Shown here in pieces: positions 2,379-51,537 of a stretch of 64,000 nt of DNA; within the stretch, counting starts at the first letter, position 1, and each line of letters begins with the position of its first letter. Source of the stretch: a phage; sequence record PZ445442.1; one strand, given 5' to 3'. The position numbers and the translations under genes are program-made. Below the pieces are notes generated by a model that was not told where the DNA came from, searched no databases, and saw only the letters and a program-made list of their open reading frames with translations.

Positions 2379-3140
2379 TTGAAATTTATCTACAAAGAAC
2401 ACTACCACAAAGGTGTTGTGTGGAGTCTATTTGACGGGTCTGGTGGTGCAGTCATTGACTGGGCAAAAGCTGGGTACCTGTGCCTGTGCTTTAATGCAGA
2501 AGGCGCTGATCACGGCAGTTATGCAGAGGTGATCACCGATCATCCCAACATTCACTATGTGGACTATTGGATTGACCCGTGGTTCCCTCAGGAAACTTTT
2601 TGCATGTATCCGGCTCCAGATTTTATTCTTGCATTTCCTCCGTGCACGCATTTAGCGGTATCAGGTGCTGCACATTTTAAGAAAAAGCTGGCTAAGGACC
2701 CCATGATCCAAATTAATGCTGTAAAGGATGCTCGGGTTGCGGAAGAGCTGGGAGAGATTTACGATTGCCCGTGGCATGTAGAGAATCCTGTGGGTGTTAT
2801 GTCCACACTGTGGCGCAAACCTGATTACCGTTTTCACCCTTCGGATTATGGCGGGTATTTACCGGAAGATGATGTAAACCCATGGTTTCCTGAATTTATA
2901 GCTCCACGTGATGCCTATCCAAAAATAACTTGCGGCTGGATAGGTAATGGATTTATAATCCCAGCCACAAAACCTGTCCCGCAAATAGTTGACGCGGTTA
3001 GTGGGTACTCCATGCAACACGCTAAGCTGGGTGGAAAGAGTGCAAGAACGAAGATGATCCGAAGCCTCACACCACGTGGCTGGGCAAAAGCTGTATTCTT
3101 AGCAAACGAGCCTGTAGTAAGGAGAAGGGCCAATGGTTGA
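2379..3140 (+). CDS. putative DNA (cytosine-5)-methyltransferase-like protein
   Basis: Track ORF 2349..3140 re-started at TTG 2379 (AGGAG SD at 2365-2369; the GTG at 2349 lies inside the terminator hairpin). Motifs resembling C5-MTase I (LFDGSGGA), IV (FPPCTHLAVSG) and VI (HVENPVG) in the right order; protein is short for this family. Confidence 0.4.
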   Translation: MKFIYKEHYHKGVVWSLFDGSGGAVIDWAKAGYLCLCFNAEGADHGSYAEVITDHPNIHYVDYWIDPWFPQETFCMYPAPDFILAFPPCTHLAVSGAAHFKKKLAKDPMIQINAVKDARVAEELGEIYDCPWHVENPVGVMSTLWRKPDYRFHPSDYGGYLPEDDVNPWFPEFIAPRDAYPKITCGWIGNGFIIPATKPVPQIVDAVSGYSMQHAKLGGKSARTKMIRSLTPRGWAKAVFLANEPVVRRRANG

Positions 3141-3804
3141 CTGGAGCAAGTATTTCACCTACAGTGACGGCAAACTGTTCTGGGCGTACACTGCAAAAGC
3201 CGGAAGGGGCAGGGTTATACATTACGCAGGTGAGGAGGCCACAGGCACAGATAAAAATGGCTATAGAGTGATATATGTGTCAGGTGTTGGGAGTGTTCGT
3301 AGGCATAGAATAGTTTGGGAGATGCATTACGGGGAGATACCTGAGGGACTTGTTGTGCGGCACAAGAACGACATAGCGGGCGATGATAGGGTAGAGAACT
3401 TAGTCCTAGGTACACAGGGCGATAATGCACGAGACATGATCTACAGTGACAAACTGAGCATTAACAATACCTCAGGGTGTAGAGGTGTACGCTACCATAG
3501 AGGCATAAAAAGATGGATTGCATCTGTTGGAGATATATACTTAGGGTGTTTTAAGACAAAAGAGGCTGCAATTGAATGCAGAAAGTTATGGGAGAAGGGA
3601 AAATTCGTCCCGCAAGAGTTGGATGTTAGAAACACTAGCGGTGTAACAGGGGTGTTCTATGTGCCGAGCTCTGGAAGGTGGAGAGTCAGAGTGCAAAGCG
3701 GCAAAAAGAGAAAGAGCTATGGCACTTACAATACTTTAGAAGAAGCAAAAACTGTAAGGGATAGAGTGATGAAAGAGATTGAGGAGTTTAAAGATGGGGA
3801 ATAA
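3133..3804 (+). CDS. HNH homing endonuclease (HNH + AP2-like DNA-binding domain), free-standing
   Basis: HRIVWEMHYGEIP...VVRHKNDIAGDDRVENL HNH signature and GVRYH..WIASV...LGCFKTKEEA AP2-like motif; sits between the MTase-like gene and primase-helicase. Confidence 0.7.
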   Translation: MVDWSKYFTYSDGKLFWAYTAKAGRGRVIHYAGEEATGTDKNGYRVIYVSGVGSVRRHRIVWEMHYGEIPEGLVVRHKNDIAGDDRVENLVLGTQGDNARDMIYSDKLSINNTSGCRGVRYHRGIKRWIASVGDIYLGCFKTKEAAIECRKLWEKGKFVPQELDVRNTSGVTGVFYVPSSGRWRVRVQSGKKRKSYGTYNTLEEAKTVRDRVMKEIEEFKDGE

Positions 3805-8354: not shown

Positions 8355-9196
8355 AAATAACATTGTGGCTTCGTGCAGTGATGCACGTCGAAAACCTCTT
8401 TAATTGACGGGAAGGCTAAGTTGACTTTTACACCTAAACATGGTAAAAGCTCAATATGCTAATCCGCAGCGAAGACTAAAGGGGTGTAGTTAAAATGGCT
8501 AGATCAGTTGATTATCACGGATATACCGTGTTTGATGATGGAACAATACCTTTATCGAAACGTGATCATACAACAATGTTCTGTTTTGATAATGGTCGAG
8601 GTTACCTTTGCGTAACCATGTTCATCGAGGGGAAGCAGTGCACAAAAGGTGTCCACCACTTGGTTGCTGAATGCTTTGTATCAAACCCTGATCCTGAAAG
8701 GCTCACATGGGTGAACCATAAGGACGGAAACAAATACAACAATGCATACTGGAACCTTGAATGGACCACCCCTGGTGGAAATATCAAACACGCTTATGAT
8801 AATGACCTCAGAGTAAGGCCAGTCGGTGAGTATAATGCCAACGCTGTACTGACCGAGGATGAGGTAACGGAGATTTGCGAACTGTTACAAAGTGGTTTAC
8901 GACAATGCGAGATTAGGGATCTTGGGTATCCTTATGAGACGGTCAGAGCCATAAAGCAAAGAAGACAGTGGAAACATATCTCTAAAAACTACACCTGGTA
9001 GTAACGTTCAGAGACTATCGAAAGCATAGCGCCAACATAAATTGGTGCGAAGAAGCGAGTAGAGTAGGCCAGCAAGTGCGGTCGAAATGGGAGGTGCCTT
9101 GGTAACAAGGTAGTGAGATAGTCCGATCCATACAGGAAACTGTATGGCTGTGCACGTAATGGTGCGGGGTAGCTTAACGACCTACCTGAACTATTG
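8355..9196 (+). mobile_element. group I self-splicing intron in DNA polymerase gene (contains HNH ORF)
   Basis: P1: exon CCAT (8351-8354) pairs with intron GTGG (8365-8368) giving the U-G splice-site wobble; P7 strands CAGAGACTA (about 9009-9017) and GAGATAGTCCG (about 9115-9125); intron ends in G9196; splicing restores motif C (...YYH|DEYQLQV). Confidence 0.7.
8495..9001 (+). CDS. intron-encoded HNH homing endonuclease
   Basis: Track ORF; HLVAECFVSNPDPERLTWVNHKDGNKYNNAYWNLEW HNH_3-like signature; located between P6-region and P7 of the intron. Confidence 0.75.
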   Translation: MARSVDYHGYTVFDDGTIPLSKRDHTTMFCFDNGRGYLCVTMFIEGKQCTKGVHHLVAECFVSNPDPERLTWVNHKDGNKYNNAYWNLEWTTPGGNIKHAYDNDLRVRPVGEYNANAVLTEDEVTEICELLQSGLRQCEIRDLGYPYETVRAIKQRRQWKHISKNYTW

Positions 9197-40059: not shown

Positions 40060-40063
40060 AATT

Positions 40064-40255
40064 CAGCCTCGCATAGACATAATCACTATAAACAGGCAAA
40101 CAATGAATCCGAATGCCACGCCACCCATAAACGTTAATATTGATGCAATCATAGTCAATCAGCCTCGCATAGACATAATCACTATAAACAGGCAAACAAT
40201 GAATCCGAATGCCACGCCACCCATAAACGTTAATATTGATGCAATCATAGTCAAT
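40064..40255. repeat. perfect tandem direct repeat, 2 x 96 bp (plus 9-bp start of a third unit)
   Basis: Unit CAGCCTCGCATAGACATAATCACTATAAACAGGCAAACAATGAATCCGAATGCCACGCCACCCATAAACGTTAATATTGATGCAATCATAGTCAAT appears twice back-to-back; intergenic on the minus strand. Confidence 0.8.
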
Positions 40256-48278: not shown

Positions 48279-48341
48279 ACTGCACCTCCTAGCTCACTGT
48301 GTGTCAATAATATGCCACATCCTTGTGGCTTTTGTCAAGAA

Positions 48342-49604
48342 TCAGCAACCACAACTTCCGTAGTGCTTAACTCGCTCGATAACTTCCGCTTGCTTACCTT
48401 TATTGTAAGGACGGGAGTTAGGACTGGAAAGATATCCAGACACTCTTCGGATCACTGAGATATATTGTTCATCGTGGCATCCGCACGCAGGGCAGCAGAA
48501 CCCTTTAGCTGTTGCACTGAACTCACCAGAGAAACCACACTTGAGACATTTATCCACAGGTTGGTTAATACCAAAATACATAATGTGTTTATACCCGAAG
48601 TCAACAAGAGCCTCTAAAGCATCCAGGTTGTTTTTCAGGTTAGGTGTCTCTACGTATCCGATGTTGCCACCAGAGGAGATCATAGCAAAACCTTCCTCAT
48701 ACTCCCACTTATCAAAAGGAGAGCTATTTATCCATACTGGCTGATGGAAACTGTTGGTGAGATATTCATGCTCGTGCTTCAACACTTCCGGATATTCACG
48801 ATCCAGACAGGTTGCAGCTTTATAGCATAGACTCTCAGAAGGAGTGCCGTACAAGCTAAATGCTAGTCTACTTTCCTTCTTGTATCGCTCACAAGCATCT
48901 CTCATGTGCTGAAGGATTCTAAGAGCTAAAGCCTTGTCACCCTCTCTACCCAAAATCTGACAGGTTTCATACACACCAATATACCCAATACTGATGGAAG
49001 CGTACCCGTCATAGAAGAGTTTATCAATACTCTCTTCAGGACCCAGGCGAGCAAGAGCGCCTTCACACCACATGATAGGGTTCTGCCCTGCCTTGGTGCC
49101 TTTCAGACGGTTAACCCTTACAAGGTGAGCTTCATATGCCAAATCCAGATACTCGTCAAGAACGGCAAAGAAATCAACACCTTCCGTCTTAGCTTTTGCC
49201 GCAATCATTGGTAGGTTAAGGCTAACAACACCCAAGTTGAATCTGCCGAGGTATTTCTCCTCACCTGTTTCCAAGTCATTGTATTTGCTAAGAAAACTCC
49301 GGCAACCCATGCTCGTTACTTTGCCATCTGTCGATCCTGTTACTTTACGATTTAGTGGAACAGAAACAAAGTCAGGATAAATCCGCTCTGCAGAGCATTC
49401 CAGAGCTAATCGTTTCAAATCATAGTTAGGATCTCCAGGGTTCATGTTGACACCCTCTTCTAGGAAGAACAACACTTTAGGGAACACAGGTGTGATACGT
49501 TCTTCACCAAGACCCATTTTGTGGACTTTCAAGTAGTTTTTGGTAATCATTCTACCAAAGACTGAGGTGTCCAGACCTAAACTTAATGTGATGAATGGAG
49601 TCTG
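48342..49604 (-). CDS. nrdD: anaerobic ribonucleoside-triphosphate reductase, exon 2
   Basis: Begins QTPFITLSLGLDTS... (E. coli NrdD: QTPFVTFGFGLGTS); contains GCRSFL and the C-terminal Cys cluster plus glycyl-radical-like RRVSGYL. Confidence 0.8.
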   Translation of the reverse strand, partial: QTPFITLSLGLDTSVFGRMITKNYLKVHKMGLGEERITPVFPKVLFFLEEGVNMNPGDPNYDLKRLALECSAERIYPDFVSVPLNRKVTGSTDGKVTSMGCRSFLSKYNDLETGEEKYLGRFNLGVVSLNLPMIAAKAKTEGVDFFAVLDEYLDLAYEAHLVRVNRLKGTKAGQNPIMWCEGALARLGPEESIDKLFYDGYASISIGYIGVYETCQILGREGDKALALRILQHMRDACERYKKESRLAFSLYGTPSESLCYKAATCLDREYPEVLKHEHEYLTNSFHQPVWINSSPFDKWEYEEGFAMISSGGNIGYVETPNLKNNLDALEALVDFGYKHIMYFGINQPVDKCLKCGFSGEFSATAKGFCCPACGCHDEQYISVIRRVSGYLSSPNSRPYNKGKQAEVIERVKHYGSCGC

Positions 49605-50401
49605 CTGTCTCCTCCCTGTGTTTCCACAGGGCCAGACTATCTCTTACTCTACTTCAATAAGATAATAACCCTTTATTGTGAGATGCTTACCTTCGGCATT
49701 TCCTTCGATAGCCCTATGAACGTTACCTACGTTCAAGTTTAAGGCTTTTGCACAGGCATAGAGTGAAGGATATTCACCCACCAAGGTTTTCCCTTTGTAT
49801 GCCTGCACTTTCCTATAGCACTTACCTGGACAAAGTCCTGTTCGGAAAGCATGTCTCTTATTATCTTCCGGCAAAACCCACTCTAGGTTAGACGGATGAT
49901 CATTCAATGTATTGCCATCTTTATGATTCACTTCCCAGTTTTCAGGGTCTTCTGGGACATCCGGCAAACAATACAAGGCAACAACCCTTGAGGTTTGGAT
50001 TCGAATCTTTTTACCTTTGTGGTTGAAAGAGTACATATAACGGCGTTTAACATGCTTGTTACCTTTTCCATAACCTCCCCACAATATTGGGTGTAGCATT
50101 CCACGTTTCCCGTATACGTTTCCAACCTCATCAATCACATAGTTTGATTCTTCACCATTAAGAATGATCTTTTTCATAGAGCCTCTCCATTTCGAAGTTA
50201 GTATTTCAACTAACCCCTACACTACTTGGTTCAGAAATGTTTGTCAAGCATCTCTGCCTTTCGTTAGTCGTTACAACCGTTCCAACTCCTGTAAGAACTA
50301 GTCACGGGATTGGCATAGCTTTCGCCTTAGCGTTCCCCGTTAGCCGGATTTACCGACCCCTCTTATGAGGTTAGGAGAGTTTTACAACGGCCAGTTTGTT
50401 A
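49605..50401 (-). mobile_element. group I self-splicing intron in nrdD (contains HNH ORF)
   Basis: Exon 1 ends ...AACGGU; intron GCCGUU pairs with it (P1, U-G at splice site, 10-nt loop as in the pol intron); P7 strands GACUA-ACGAAAGG and GAGAUAGUC; GAAA-tetraloop hairpin CCCTGTGGAAACACAGGG; intron ends in G; splicing gives ...SVNG|QTPF.... Confidence 0.7.
49644..50177 (-). CDS. intron-encoded HNH homing endonuclease
   Basis: WEVNHKDGNTLNDHPSNLEWV HNH signature; located between P7 5' strand and P7' 3' strand of the intron. Confidence 0.75.
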   Translation of the reverse strand: MKKIILNGEESNYVIDEVGNVYGKRGMLHPILWGGYGKGNKHVKRRYMYSFNHKGKKIRIQTSRVVALYCLPDVPEDPENWEVNHKDGNTLNDHPSNLEWVLPEDNKRHAFRTGLCPGKCYRKVQAYKGKTLVGEYPSLYACAKALNLNVGNVHRAIEGNAEGKHLTIKGYYLIEVE

Positions 50402-51262
50402 ACCGTTGACAGAGGTTAACGTATTGATTTGATAGAGCAAAGTCTGCATGCTGTCAAATACATCTTTATCTGTCATTTGCATTGCAACAGTTTCAGCATC
50501 CGGCAACCAATGTTCCTGGCAAAATTTAAGGTTCTTCTCATAGGTCGCTCCAGCATACTGTGCCAGATAATGATCAATATGGCTCATAGTCTGACCTCCA
50601 TATTGAGCACTAGCTACAGCACTAGAGATTTGGCTAAGGATTGTTGTTGCAACCCCTATTGACTTCGGCTTACTGACATGGGCGTTACCAATGTTGAATC
50701 CGTTTTCCAACATATCTGGATAATTTACCAAACAACAGTTTGTTAACGGACTGATCAAGTAGTCAAGATCATGCACATGGATGAAGCCTTTATTGTGCTC
50801 TTCTGAAACACGGTCTGGCAGGATCTGTGTTGATGCAAGGTGTTTGCTAAGGATGCCTGCAAGCAGGTCACGATGAGTGTGTACATGATTAGTAGGCTTA
50901 TTTGCGTTTTCTTTTGTAAATTCATCACAAGTTCGATCCAAGAAGCCACTAATATCTGCAAGCAGTTTTCCACCTGCCTCTCTGTTATTATCTCTTGTCT
51001 GTCTATACTGGATGTATTCTCTGGCTGCACATTTTAAACCCATATCCATAAGAGCATCTTCAACAAGGATATGGATATTTTTTACAGAGATCGTGCACTG
51101 GTCGGTTGGTAGATTGTTAGCCACAACTTCATTAACCGCGCAGGCGATCCGGTAAGCTTCTTCTTCAGTATGTCCAGACTCAAGTAAGGCGGACTCTGCC
51201 GCCTTGATCACCTTAATTCCGTTATAGAACTCTTCTCTACCGTCCCGTTTTACAACTTTCAC
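50402..51262 (-). CDS. nrdD: anaerobic ribonucleoside-triphosphate reductase, exon 1 (ATP-cone + N-terminal catalytic region)
   Basis: VVKRDGREEF ATP-cone start; NENANK...RDLLAGI, IHVHDLDY and GNAHVSKPKSIGVATT blocks match E. coli NrdD from memory. Confidence 0.8.
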
Positions 51263-51537
51263 TTTTTCTCTCCAAAACCATTCTTAACAAAAGAGATGAA
51301 ATCGTCGGCACCGCCTATATGGACACTGTCAAGATCGCTTTCTAAGAAGATCTGCGGCAACGTTCTGGGGACAATTGGACTGCACTTCTCAATAAGCTCT
51401 TCTTTTGTGTAGCCCTCGCCAAGTGTCTTATATACAAAAGGCAGACCTTTGCTGATTGCAAATTCTTTTGCTCTGACACAATGTGGGCAGTTATCCTTAC
51501 CGTAAATGATGATGAAAAAAGATTTTTCGCAGCTCAT
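51259..51537 (-). CDS. glutaredoxin
   Basis: CPHC active site and TLPQIFL....HIGGADD glutaredoxin fold signature. Confidence 0.75.
   Translation of the reverse strand: MSCEKSFFIIIYGKDNCPHCVRAKEFAISKGLPFVYKTLGEGYTKEELIEKCSPIVPRTLPQIFLESDLDSVHIGGADDFISFVKNGFGEKK

Follow-up and report, generated by a model that had tools for sequence, protein, structure and literature searches.

Ribonucleotide reductase (RNR) genes are the phage genes most often interrupted by introns (PMC3653736). The classic case in nrdD, the gene for class III RNR, is the sunY intron of phage T4 with its endonuclease I-TevII. In the DNA polymerase gene of the Bacillus phage SPO1 there is a group I intron whose ORF encodes I-HmuI, an HNH endonuclease of ~175 aa with known nicking activity. 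Among the Vequintavirinae, splicing of HNH-containing introns has been shown by RT-PCR in terL, pol, nrdA and nrdB of the Certrevirus phage CB7 (PMC7344957), and in the paper on phage rV5 terL introns are the only ones reported.

The window analysed here is a stretch of 64,000 nucleotides of phage DNA (record PZ445442.1), and this study concerns positions 49605-50401 on its minus strand. We regard this segment, with high confidence, as a mobile group I intron, nrdD-I1, which carries its own HNH homing-endonuclease gene and interrupts the class III RNR gene nrdD. A group I intron with an HNH endonuclease inside nrdD had been proposed by an earlier reading made from the sequence alone, without database searches (the sequence-only reading), and the core helices, the splice junction and a Pfam HNH_3 match all agree with it.

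Compared with the described systems, nrdD-I1 resembles T4 sunY in host gene and in the conserved NrdD stretch that is interrupted, in lacking P2, in running from P1 through GUAAAA into P3, in its P4 (ACGGGG) and in having P7.1 and P7.2. However, sunY is inserted 32 nt upstream, inside the Tyr180 codon, rather than at G190|Q191 (T4 numbering); its endonuclease is of the GIY-YIG type and lies downstream of P9, whereas that of nrdD-I1 is an HNH protein in P8; and it is without the two hairpins found here between P3 and P4, core similarity between the two introns reaching only z ~3. The SPO1 intron is likewise a phage group I intron with an HNH endonuclease of similar size, but it sits in another host gene of another phage group and the protein similarity is weak. 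CB7, by its published description, belongs to the same subfamily and has HNH introns in replication and nucleotide-metabolism genes, although nrdD was not reported as interrupted (PMC7344957). The related phages phi92 and JEP1 carry an intron in the same gene, nrdD-I2, which phi92 annotates as a 'spliced variant' and which JEP1 combines with nrdD-I1. This second intron lies at G289|C290 (T4 numbering), adjoining the active-site Cys, is absent from the window, and is close to the T4 sunY and td cores (z 15-34) but not to nrdD-I1.

Materials and methods

The T4 sunY reference sequence was taken from NC_000866. For the analysis of covariation, an alignment was hand-curated to fit the structural model, and pairs, column shuffles and shifted registers were counted on it in Python. 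When MAFFT was applied to the diverged introns it misaligned the variable helices, and an N-padded version was off by one column; pairs were therefore counted on our own curated alignment.

Results

The nrdD gene and its splice junction

Positions 48300-51300 of the window are 100% identical to Escherichia phage EmilHeitz (Bas49, MZ501062.1), an rV5-like Vequintavirus of the BASEL collection. That record gives nrdD as a joined CDS in two pieces (bas49_0185) enclosing a 'putative homing endonuclease' (bas49_0186), and the BASEL paper describes the use of comparative genomics for the boundaries of homing-endonuclease-associated introns (PMC8594841). The locus is made up as follows:

50402..51262, minus strand: nrdD exon 1; Pfam ATP-cone (E 5.9e-14) and NRDD (E 6e-41)
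49605..50401, minus strand: group I intron nrdD-I1, 797 nt, first base U50401, terminal G49605; 797-bp difference from intron-less alleles
49644..50177, minus strand: homing-endonuclease ORF, 177 aa, I-HmuI-like HNH, filling the P8 loop; identical to QXV78088.1
48342..49604, minus strand: nrdD exon 2; first residues QTPFITLSLG..., active-site Cys region (MGCRSF) and glycyl-radical domain

The GTG start of exon 1 overlaps the stop codon of the glutaredoxin gene, and the exon codes for the ATP-cone and the N-terminal NrdD domain. Its ORF (50399-51262, minus strand) ends in ...NTLTSVNG, the last exon codon being GGU, and then in the stop UAA, while the reading frame of exon 2 is open upstream through QQTPFITLSLGLDTS; the sequence-only reading had described both ends, and both were found where it placed them. 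Splicing after U50402 and after G49605 takes out 797 nt and gives ...SVNG|QTPFITLSLG, in an NrdD of 707 aa, with an expected ligated exon junction of ...GUCAACGGU|CAGACUCC... (also written GUCAACGGU|CAGACUCCA). Excision thus restores the frame and leaves a terminal G at the 3' splice site, as is characteristic of group I introns. The spliced protein is colinear with T4 NrdD (1h78; E 2.4e-167) and gap-free over SVNG|QTPF (T4: SSNGQTPFVT), and the junction is also gap-free against 9d3x (TSNGQTPFTS). The intron separates the Gly codon from the Gln codon in the conserved motif NGQTPF.

The boundaries 49605-50401 given by the sequence-only reading proved exact on two counts. An exact-sequence look-up of the 636-aa spliced protein that starts at the ATG at 51049 returned QXV78087.1, the GenBank joined CDS, so that the deposited junction is the same as the one read from the sequence. 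Related phages with intron-less nrdD, for which that reading had suggested looking, were also found: in LL12, S127, O157 typing phage 4 and nimi the gene runs ...AACGGG|CAAAC... and is in each case exactly 797 bp shorter. The codon at position -1 is GGU in all carriers and GGG in the intron-less alleles examined (4/4). A 3' splice site after G49602 would remove Gln191, and it was rejected because the intron-less genes have this residue.

RNA structure of the intron

The following elements of nrdD-I1 were assigned, all on the minus strand:

50386..50407: P1; exon AACGGU 50407-50402 with internal guide GCCGUU 50391-50386, and U50402·G50391 at the splice site
50374..50379: P3 5' strand CUCUCC, straight after P1 and GUAAAA, with no P2
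50343..50370: two extra hairpins between P3 and J3/4; hp1 CCUC-AUAA-GAGG 50370-50359 and hp2 GUCGG-UAAAU-CCGGC 50357-50343
50273..50340: P4-P6 domain; P4 ACGGGG/UCCCGU, P5, P5a with a GAAA loop, P6 GACU[A]GUUC.../GAACGGUU
50265..50269: P7 5' strand GACUA, pairing with UAGUC 49639-49635; invariant in the family
50232..50256: P7.1 hairpin CAGAGAUG/CAUUUCUG, 8/8 positions paired; the loop holds a -35-like TTGACA
50194..50217: P7.2 hairpin GGGGUUAGU/ACUAACUUC, preceded by the conserved AGUAGUGUAG, which contains a -10-like TAGTGT
50183..50188: P3 3' strand GGAGAG; also a Shine-Dalgarno-like sequence for the endonuclease ORF (putative regulatory role)
50181-50176 and 49652-49647: P8, 5' strand CUCUAU and 3' strand GUAGAG, with the endonuclease ORF in the loop
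49605..49639: 3' core; P7 3' strand UAGUC 49639-49635, P9 CCCUGUG-GAAA-CACAGGG 49631-49614, tail AGGAGACAG to G49605

The P1 pairing with its U·G, the P7 strands GACUA/UAGUC and the GAAA-capped P9 hairpin, all named by the sequence-only reading, are present, and around them the conserved core is complete, with the P3/P7 pseudoknot, P4-P6 and P8 fully paired. The loop of P1 is the 10-nt UAACAAACUG; its final bases CUG could form a P10 with the first bases of exon 2, CAG, although this candidate has 3 bp only. A UAA lies between hp2 and P4, and the intron ends 9 nt beyond P9. The P5 motif GCUAAG...UAUGC has 10/11 positions of the classical 11-nt GAAA-tetraloop receptor and, together with the GAAA loop of P9 (L9), would fit the known L9-P5 contact. 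As in IA2 introns (T4 td/nrdB/sunY type), P7.1 and P7.2 stand between P7 and the 3' strand of P3; unlike in that type, the 5' strand of P3 does not directly precede J3/4-P4, hp1 and hp2 intervening. When phage AlexBoehm is aligned to the Rfam model, P3 is formed with the 3' strand of hp2 instead; this alternative was rejected, as it reaches only ~3 bp in most lineages, whereas the CUCUCC/GGAGAG-type pairing is perfect and covaries.

No match to Rfam was obtained in the whole window at gathering thresholds, and permissive scans alone recovered both of its introns, the one in nrdD and one in pol. The group I scan proposed by the sequence-only reading did give a match, RF00028 (Intron_gpI), at 27.1 bits (E 1.4e-4, local scan), which falls short of the curated cut-off of 50. 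Posterior probability in the Rfam alignment is high on AAGAGAUAGUCU and P9. The low score is probably due to the 534-nt ORF in P8 and to the unusual 5' half of the intron; an ORF-less variant of the intron in AlexBoehm scores 29.8 bits, also below 50.

In 7 introns, which represent 5 lineages and have quite different sequences, every helix of the model pairs completely. This complete pairing carries no weight, because the helices were chosen by hand; compensatory changes, however, do count, and on the alignment hand-curated to fit the model compensatory double changes were found in 40/68 pair columns, against 21.8 +/- 2.9 in 500 column shuffles. When the 3' partners were shifted by 1-3 columns, pairing fell to 36-47% of cells. 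P1 has compensatory changes in 4/6 pair columns across lineages (relatives have GGAGGU/GCCUCC and GGUGU/GCACU), all 7 pair columns of P3 covary (CUCUCC/GGAGAG, CUCUGC/GCAGRG, CACGGUG/CGCCGUG, AUACCUU/AAGGUAU), and hp1 and hp2, which neither T4 sunY and td nor the pol intron have, are found in every related lineage and covary there. P4 and P7 are invariant in the family and agree with the Rfam consensus. Folding of the ORF-less variant gave z = -3.8 against shuffles, and its centroid recovers P1, hp2, P4/P5, P6a, P7.2, P8a and P9.

On the strength of the sequence, we infer with high confidence that nrdD-I1 splices and that it homes. The transcript would fold into a group I core (P1 with its U·G, the P3/P7 pseudoknot, P4-P6, P7.1/P7.2, P8 and P9), in which the GAAA-capped P9 probably docks on the receptor-like P5 motif. 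As a putative ribozyme it would let an external guanosine attack after U50402; the freed exon 1 would then attack after the terminal G49605, and the exons would join to encode the 707-aa NrdD.

The endonuclease ORF and its expression

The AUG of the endonuclease ORF lies within the 5' strand of P8, and its stop, UAA, follows directly on the 3' strand. The 177-aa protein matches Pfam HNH_3 (29.4 bits, cut-off 24.8, residues 78-107) and falls into phrog_59 with E 3.5e-26. The alignment with I-HmuI (1u3e) spans residues 8-160, nearly the whole protein, and takes in a putative NUMOD-like region at the C terminus; the similarity is weak (E 3.9e-4), and the Pfam I-HmuI_NUMOD-like model reaches 18.4 bits, below its cut-off of 27. 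Beyond the Vequintaviruses its nearest homologue is ~32% identical.

Upstream of the AUG, the purine-rich GGAGAGG coincides with the 3' strand of P3. Because the ribosome-binding site would be part of P3 and the AUG part of P8, the folded ribozyme should mask translation of the endonuclease. Control by RNA folding of this kind, with the ribosome-binding site hidden, would be analogous to what is found for the ORFs in T4 introns.

A promoter-like element had also been noted inside the intron, upstream of this ORF. The sequence is indeed there (minus strand, TTGACA 50247-50242, 17 nt, TAGTGT 50224-50219), but its strength as a promoter is not borne out: TAGTGT has 3/6 of the -10 consensus positions and overlaps the conserved core segment AGUAGUGUAGGG, and in a promoter scan of 2.2 kb, where ~4 stronger sites are expected by chance, TTGACA-N17-TAGTGT was not flagged. 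It may be speculated that a transcript from this element, being without the 5' strand of P3, would leave the ribosome-binding site free.

The intron would spread by homing. In a mixed infection with a related phage whose nrdD has no intron, the endonuclease would nick or cut that allele, and repair would copy the intron, together with adjacent exon sequence, into it.

Distribution among Vequintaviruses

Among 121 Vequintavirus records that contain the region, 28 have the intron with the endonuclease, 14 an ORF-less intron and ~79 no intron at the site. In the first group the intron core is 98.4-100% identical. The ORF-less version, found for example in AlexBoehm, is 257 nt long and occupies the same site; it is 86-87% identical to nrdD-I1 over the first 156 nt and differs in the P7.1-P8 block, P7.1 being absent and P7.2 kept. 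Between the two variants P3 has changed in a compensatory way, from CUCUCC/GGAGAG to CUCUGC/GCAGGG.

As an alternative to splicing, the two halves of nrdD might be translated separately and assemble into an active enzyme, the insert being a free-standing endonuclease cassette, and many GenBank records do list two separate nrdD ORFs; most records of sister phages show 'nrdD' in two or three pieces alongside an isolated HNH gene rather than one spliced gene. Exon 2 also offers an in-frame ATG at 49550, and functional split RNR genes are known (PMC3653736); nrdA of Aeromonas phage Aeh1, split by the mobE endonuclease gene, is reported to be such a case. However, a separate C-terminal half would lose the invariant QTPF, since its ORF offers no ATG until 18 codons beyond the junction, and the group I core of the insert is complete, its helices covarying and its splice-site signatures exact. 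Nor can an endonuclease cassette explain the 14 phages that have the 257-nt version, without any ORF, at the same site, and we consider a split gene without splicing very improbable.

The intron could also be a decaying relic that no longer splices, nrdD being a pseudogene that is tolerated as class I NrdAB suffices aerobically. NrdAB is encoded next door, the Rfam score is below threshold, and a degenerate intron ORF has a precedent in T4, where I-TevIII is recorded as defective. Decay is hard to reconcile, however, with nrdD exons that are both intact and conserved in 42/42 carriers, with core helices that are all intact and vary between variants by compensation (P3), or with an endonuclease ORF that keeps its full length, at 95% identity or more, in all 28 records that have it; a relic is scarcely credible on this evidence.

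Measured against EmilHeitz, three divergent carriers have 97.2-99.0% identity in the intron, 95.8-98.5% in exon 1 and only 90.3-93.0% in exon 2. An intron more conserved than its exons is consistent with horizontal spread, although the difference could partly reflect constraint rather than recent spread. Along with the presence/absence polymorphism, it lends homing indirect support.

Comparison with the intron in pol

The window contains a second intron, which has this form:

8355-9196: pol intron; P1 CCAU/GUGG, with U·G and a loop of 10 nt; YHDE, a motif of family-A polymerases, restored on splicing; GenBank joined CDS

For this intron, U8348 was discarded as the base before the 5' splice site, where it would form a U-A pair, since U8354 gives both CCAU/GUGG with U·G and YHDE. 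The sequence-only reading had concluded that one intron family has colonised two essential genes, and several resemblances speak for recent movement of copies between genes in this phage lineage. Both introns are of the phage group I type, possess P7.1/P7.2 and differ little in their P7 strands; each has a P1 loop of 10 nt, GCUAAG...UAUGC in P5 and a GAAA L9, and both ORFs belong to the broad family phrog_59. The P1 loop, which had been called the same, agrees in length but not in sequence (nrdD UAACAAACUG, pol AAAUAACAUU). The P7 strands are almost identical, as had been said, but both correspond to the consensus P7 of the whole class in Rfam; P7.1/P7.2 and the GAAA L9 with a receptor-like P5 are likewise features at the level of the class.

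Other evidence sets the two introns apart. The pol intron has P2, P9.1 and P9.2 and holds its ORF in P6; in contrast, nrdD-I1 has no P2, has hp1 and hp2, ends shortly past P9 and holds its ORF in P8, the different ORF-bearing loop having been noticed correctly from the sequence. A blastn search with 11-base words and the nrdD intron core as query found no second place in the EmilHeitz genome. The alignment of the two introns to each other, which had been suggested as a check, revealed no specific similarity beyond the class consensus: in global alignments nrdD-I1 scores z 1.4-4.2 against the pol intron, the level it reaches against T4 sunY or td (1.4-3.6), whereas it scores 5.6-11.6 against the metagenomic introns L013 and L008, and the pol intron scores 4-10, itself weak, against td, sunY and nrdD-I2. 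The endonucleases align over 48 aa only, around the HNH motif, and share 23/48 residues there. The two introns are therefore members of the same broad class and are not supported as one family moved between two genes, an origin we regard as unlikely. Nor is nrdD strictly an essential gene: T4 nrdD is dispensable in aerobic growth.

Wider relatives

Scanning viral contigs for the 16-mer GGCTAACGGGGAACGC brought up related introns in four further lineages and in one metagenomic Vequintavirus, and blastn with one related intron led to Lactococcus 949-group, Enterococcus, Acinetobacter, Flavobacterium and Bacillus phages. The intron of Lactococcus phage LW81 interrupts a gene for topoisomerase II and, judged by eye, shares the layout of nrdD-I1. 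The hp1/hp2 layout is common to L008, L011, L013, L017, L022 and LW81, and the host genes in the lineage are unrelated (nrdD, topoisomerase II and a structural-protein gene), occurring in coliphages, in Lactococcus, Enterococcus and other phages and in metagenomic contigs. We tentatively raise the possibility, itself rather doubtful, that nrdD-I1 stands for a sub-lineage of phage group I introns which is distinct in structure and has not been described so far. The layout lacks P2, has the covarying hp1/hp2 and a receptor-like motif in P5 facing a GAAA L9, and places the 3' splice site within ~10 nt of P9. No description of hp1/hp2 ('P3.1/P3.2') was found in a literature search that covered the structural group I literature less than thoroughly.

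Discussion

The boundaries of nrdD-I1, the reading frame that its removal restores, its covarying helices, the family of its endonuclease and its presence/absence polymorphism are all observed, and from these sequence data catalysis, masking of endonuclease translation and homing would follow. The intron is already annotated in the public record and is a well-known kind of phage element, and it leaves the current understanding of phage introns unchanged. Mildly new are only the site of insertion, which is distinct, the polymorphism with its three states, and the sharing of the hp1/hp2 layout with a dispersed lineage that scores below threshold.

For annotation, the curated threshold of Rfam misses nrdD-I1. 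If the sub-lineage is real, then, because it falls under this threshold, annotation pipelines would log its members as split genes and not as introns.

For the biology of these phages, nrdD-I1 marks a second, independent insertion point for introns in nrdD, the classic site of T4 lying 32 nt away, and JEP1 and phi92 carry a third nrdD intron, adjoining the active-site cysteine codon. The Vequintaviruses thus offer three natural states at a single site, intron with endonuclease, ORF-less intron and empty, which are suited to studies of homing and intron loss.

Structure of the nrdD-I1 intron and its relatives

The group I intron of nrdD (nrdD-I1) belongs to a lineage of P2-less introns, in which the following element is present:

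50343-50370, minus strand: two covarying hairpins between the 5' strand of P3 and J3/4.

The same two-hairpin, P2-less layout was also found in the introns L008, L011, L013, L017, L022 and L033, and the introns that have it lie in genes that are not related to each other, from widely differing phages, e.g., in the topoisomerase II gene of Lactococcus phage LW81; those of L008 and L011 occupy an N-terminal site within a structural-protein gene. No description of this layout was found in the literature, of which the part on group I intron structure was covered incompletely.

A small hairpin also spans the 3' splice site of nrdD-I1 (49597-49613, minus strand), pairing GGAG of the intron (49612-49609) with CUCC of the exon (49600-49597). 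In the ORF-less variants this hairpin is GGGG/CCCC, such that the change in the intron is matched by a synonymous change in the exon (ACU to ACC).

The ORF-less and endonuclease-carrying versions of nrdD-I1 were compared using phage AlexBoehm (L002) and 50178-50265 of the window. A simple deletion linking the two was ruled out, as the whole stretch between the P7 strands differs: P7.1 is present in one version and absent from the other, and the sequences of P7.2 and P8 are unlike. The P3 pairing is kept in both through a compensatory C/G swap. This pattern suggests that the two versions are old sub-lineages, or that they arose by recombination.

Annotation of nrdD and comparison with the deposited genome

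In GenBank, NrdD starts at an internal ATG (51049, minus strand), giving 636 aa. The ORF opens upstream, at a GTG (51262, minus strand) that overlaps the stop codon of the glutaredoxin gene (GTGA):

51049-51262, minus strand: N-terminal NrdD extension, from the GTG start upstream of the GenBank ATG.

The 71 extra residues complete the ATP-cone domain (Pfam, E = 5.9e-14), and NrdD is annotated at 707 aa in intron-less sister phages.

The window also carries an exact 96-nt tandem duplication (40063-40254; copies 100% identical), while the deposited EmilHeitz genome (MZ501062.1) has a single copy, located where bas49_0161 and bas49_0162, both small hypothetical genes, meet. The extra copy therefore shifts coordinates relative to GenBank by 96 between the pol and nrdD regions.

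Other introns and endonuclease genes

A second nrdD intron (nrdD-I2), not found in the window, lies between the codons for Gly289 and the active-site Cys290 (T4 numbering) in two phages:

L003 (JEP1), 1495-2246: nrdD-I2, with an HNH ORF.
L005 (phi92), 2245-2492: nrdD-I2, without an ORF.

It is closely related to the T4 sunY core, with which it has the guide sequence GCUCAU in common. The 3' domain (P9.1/P9.2) of the pol intron resembles those of nrdD-I2 and the T4 td intron. The pol intron, with P1 formed by CCAU/GUGG, is inserted between His and Asp of motif C of the family-A polymerase (YYH|DEYQ):

8355-9196, plus strand: pol group I intron (Rfam 38.9 bits, below threshold).
8495-9001, plus strand: its HNH ORF, 168 aa, located in P6.
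3133-3804, plus strand: bas49_0075, free-standing 'putative homing endonuclease', flanked by the genes for the Dcm-like methyltransferase and for primase/helicase.

The last of these is a further, putative, mobile endonuclease of the replication module.
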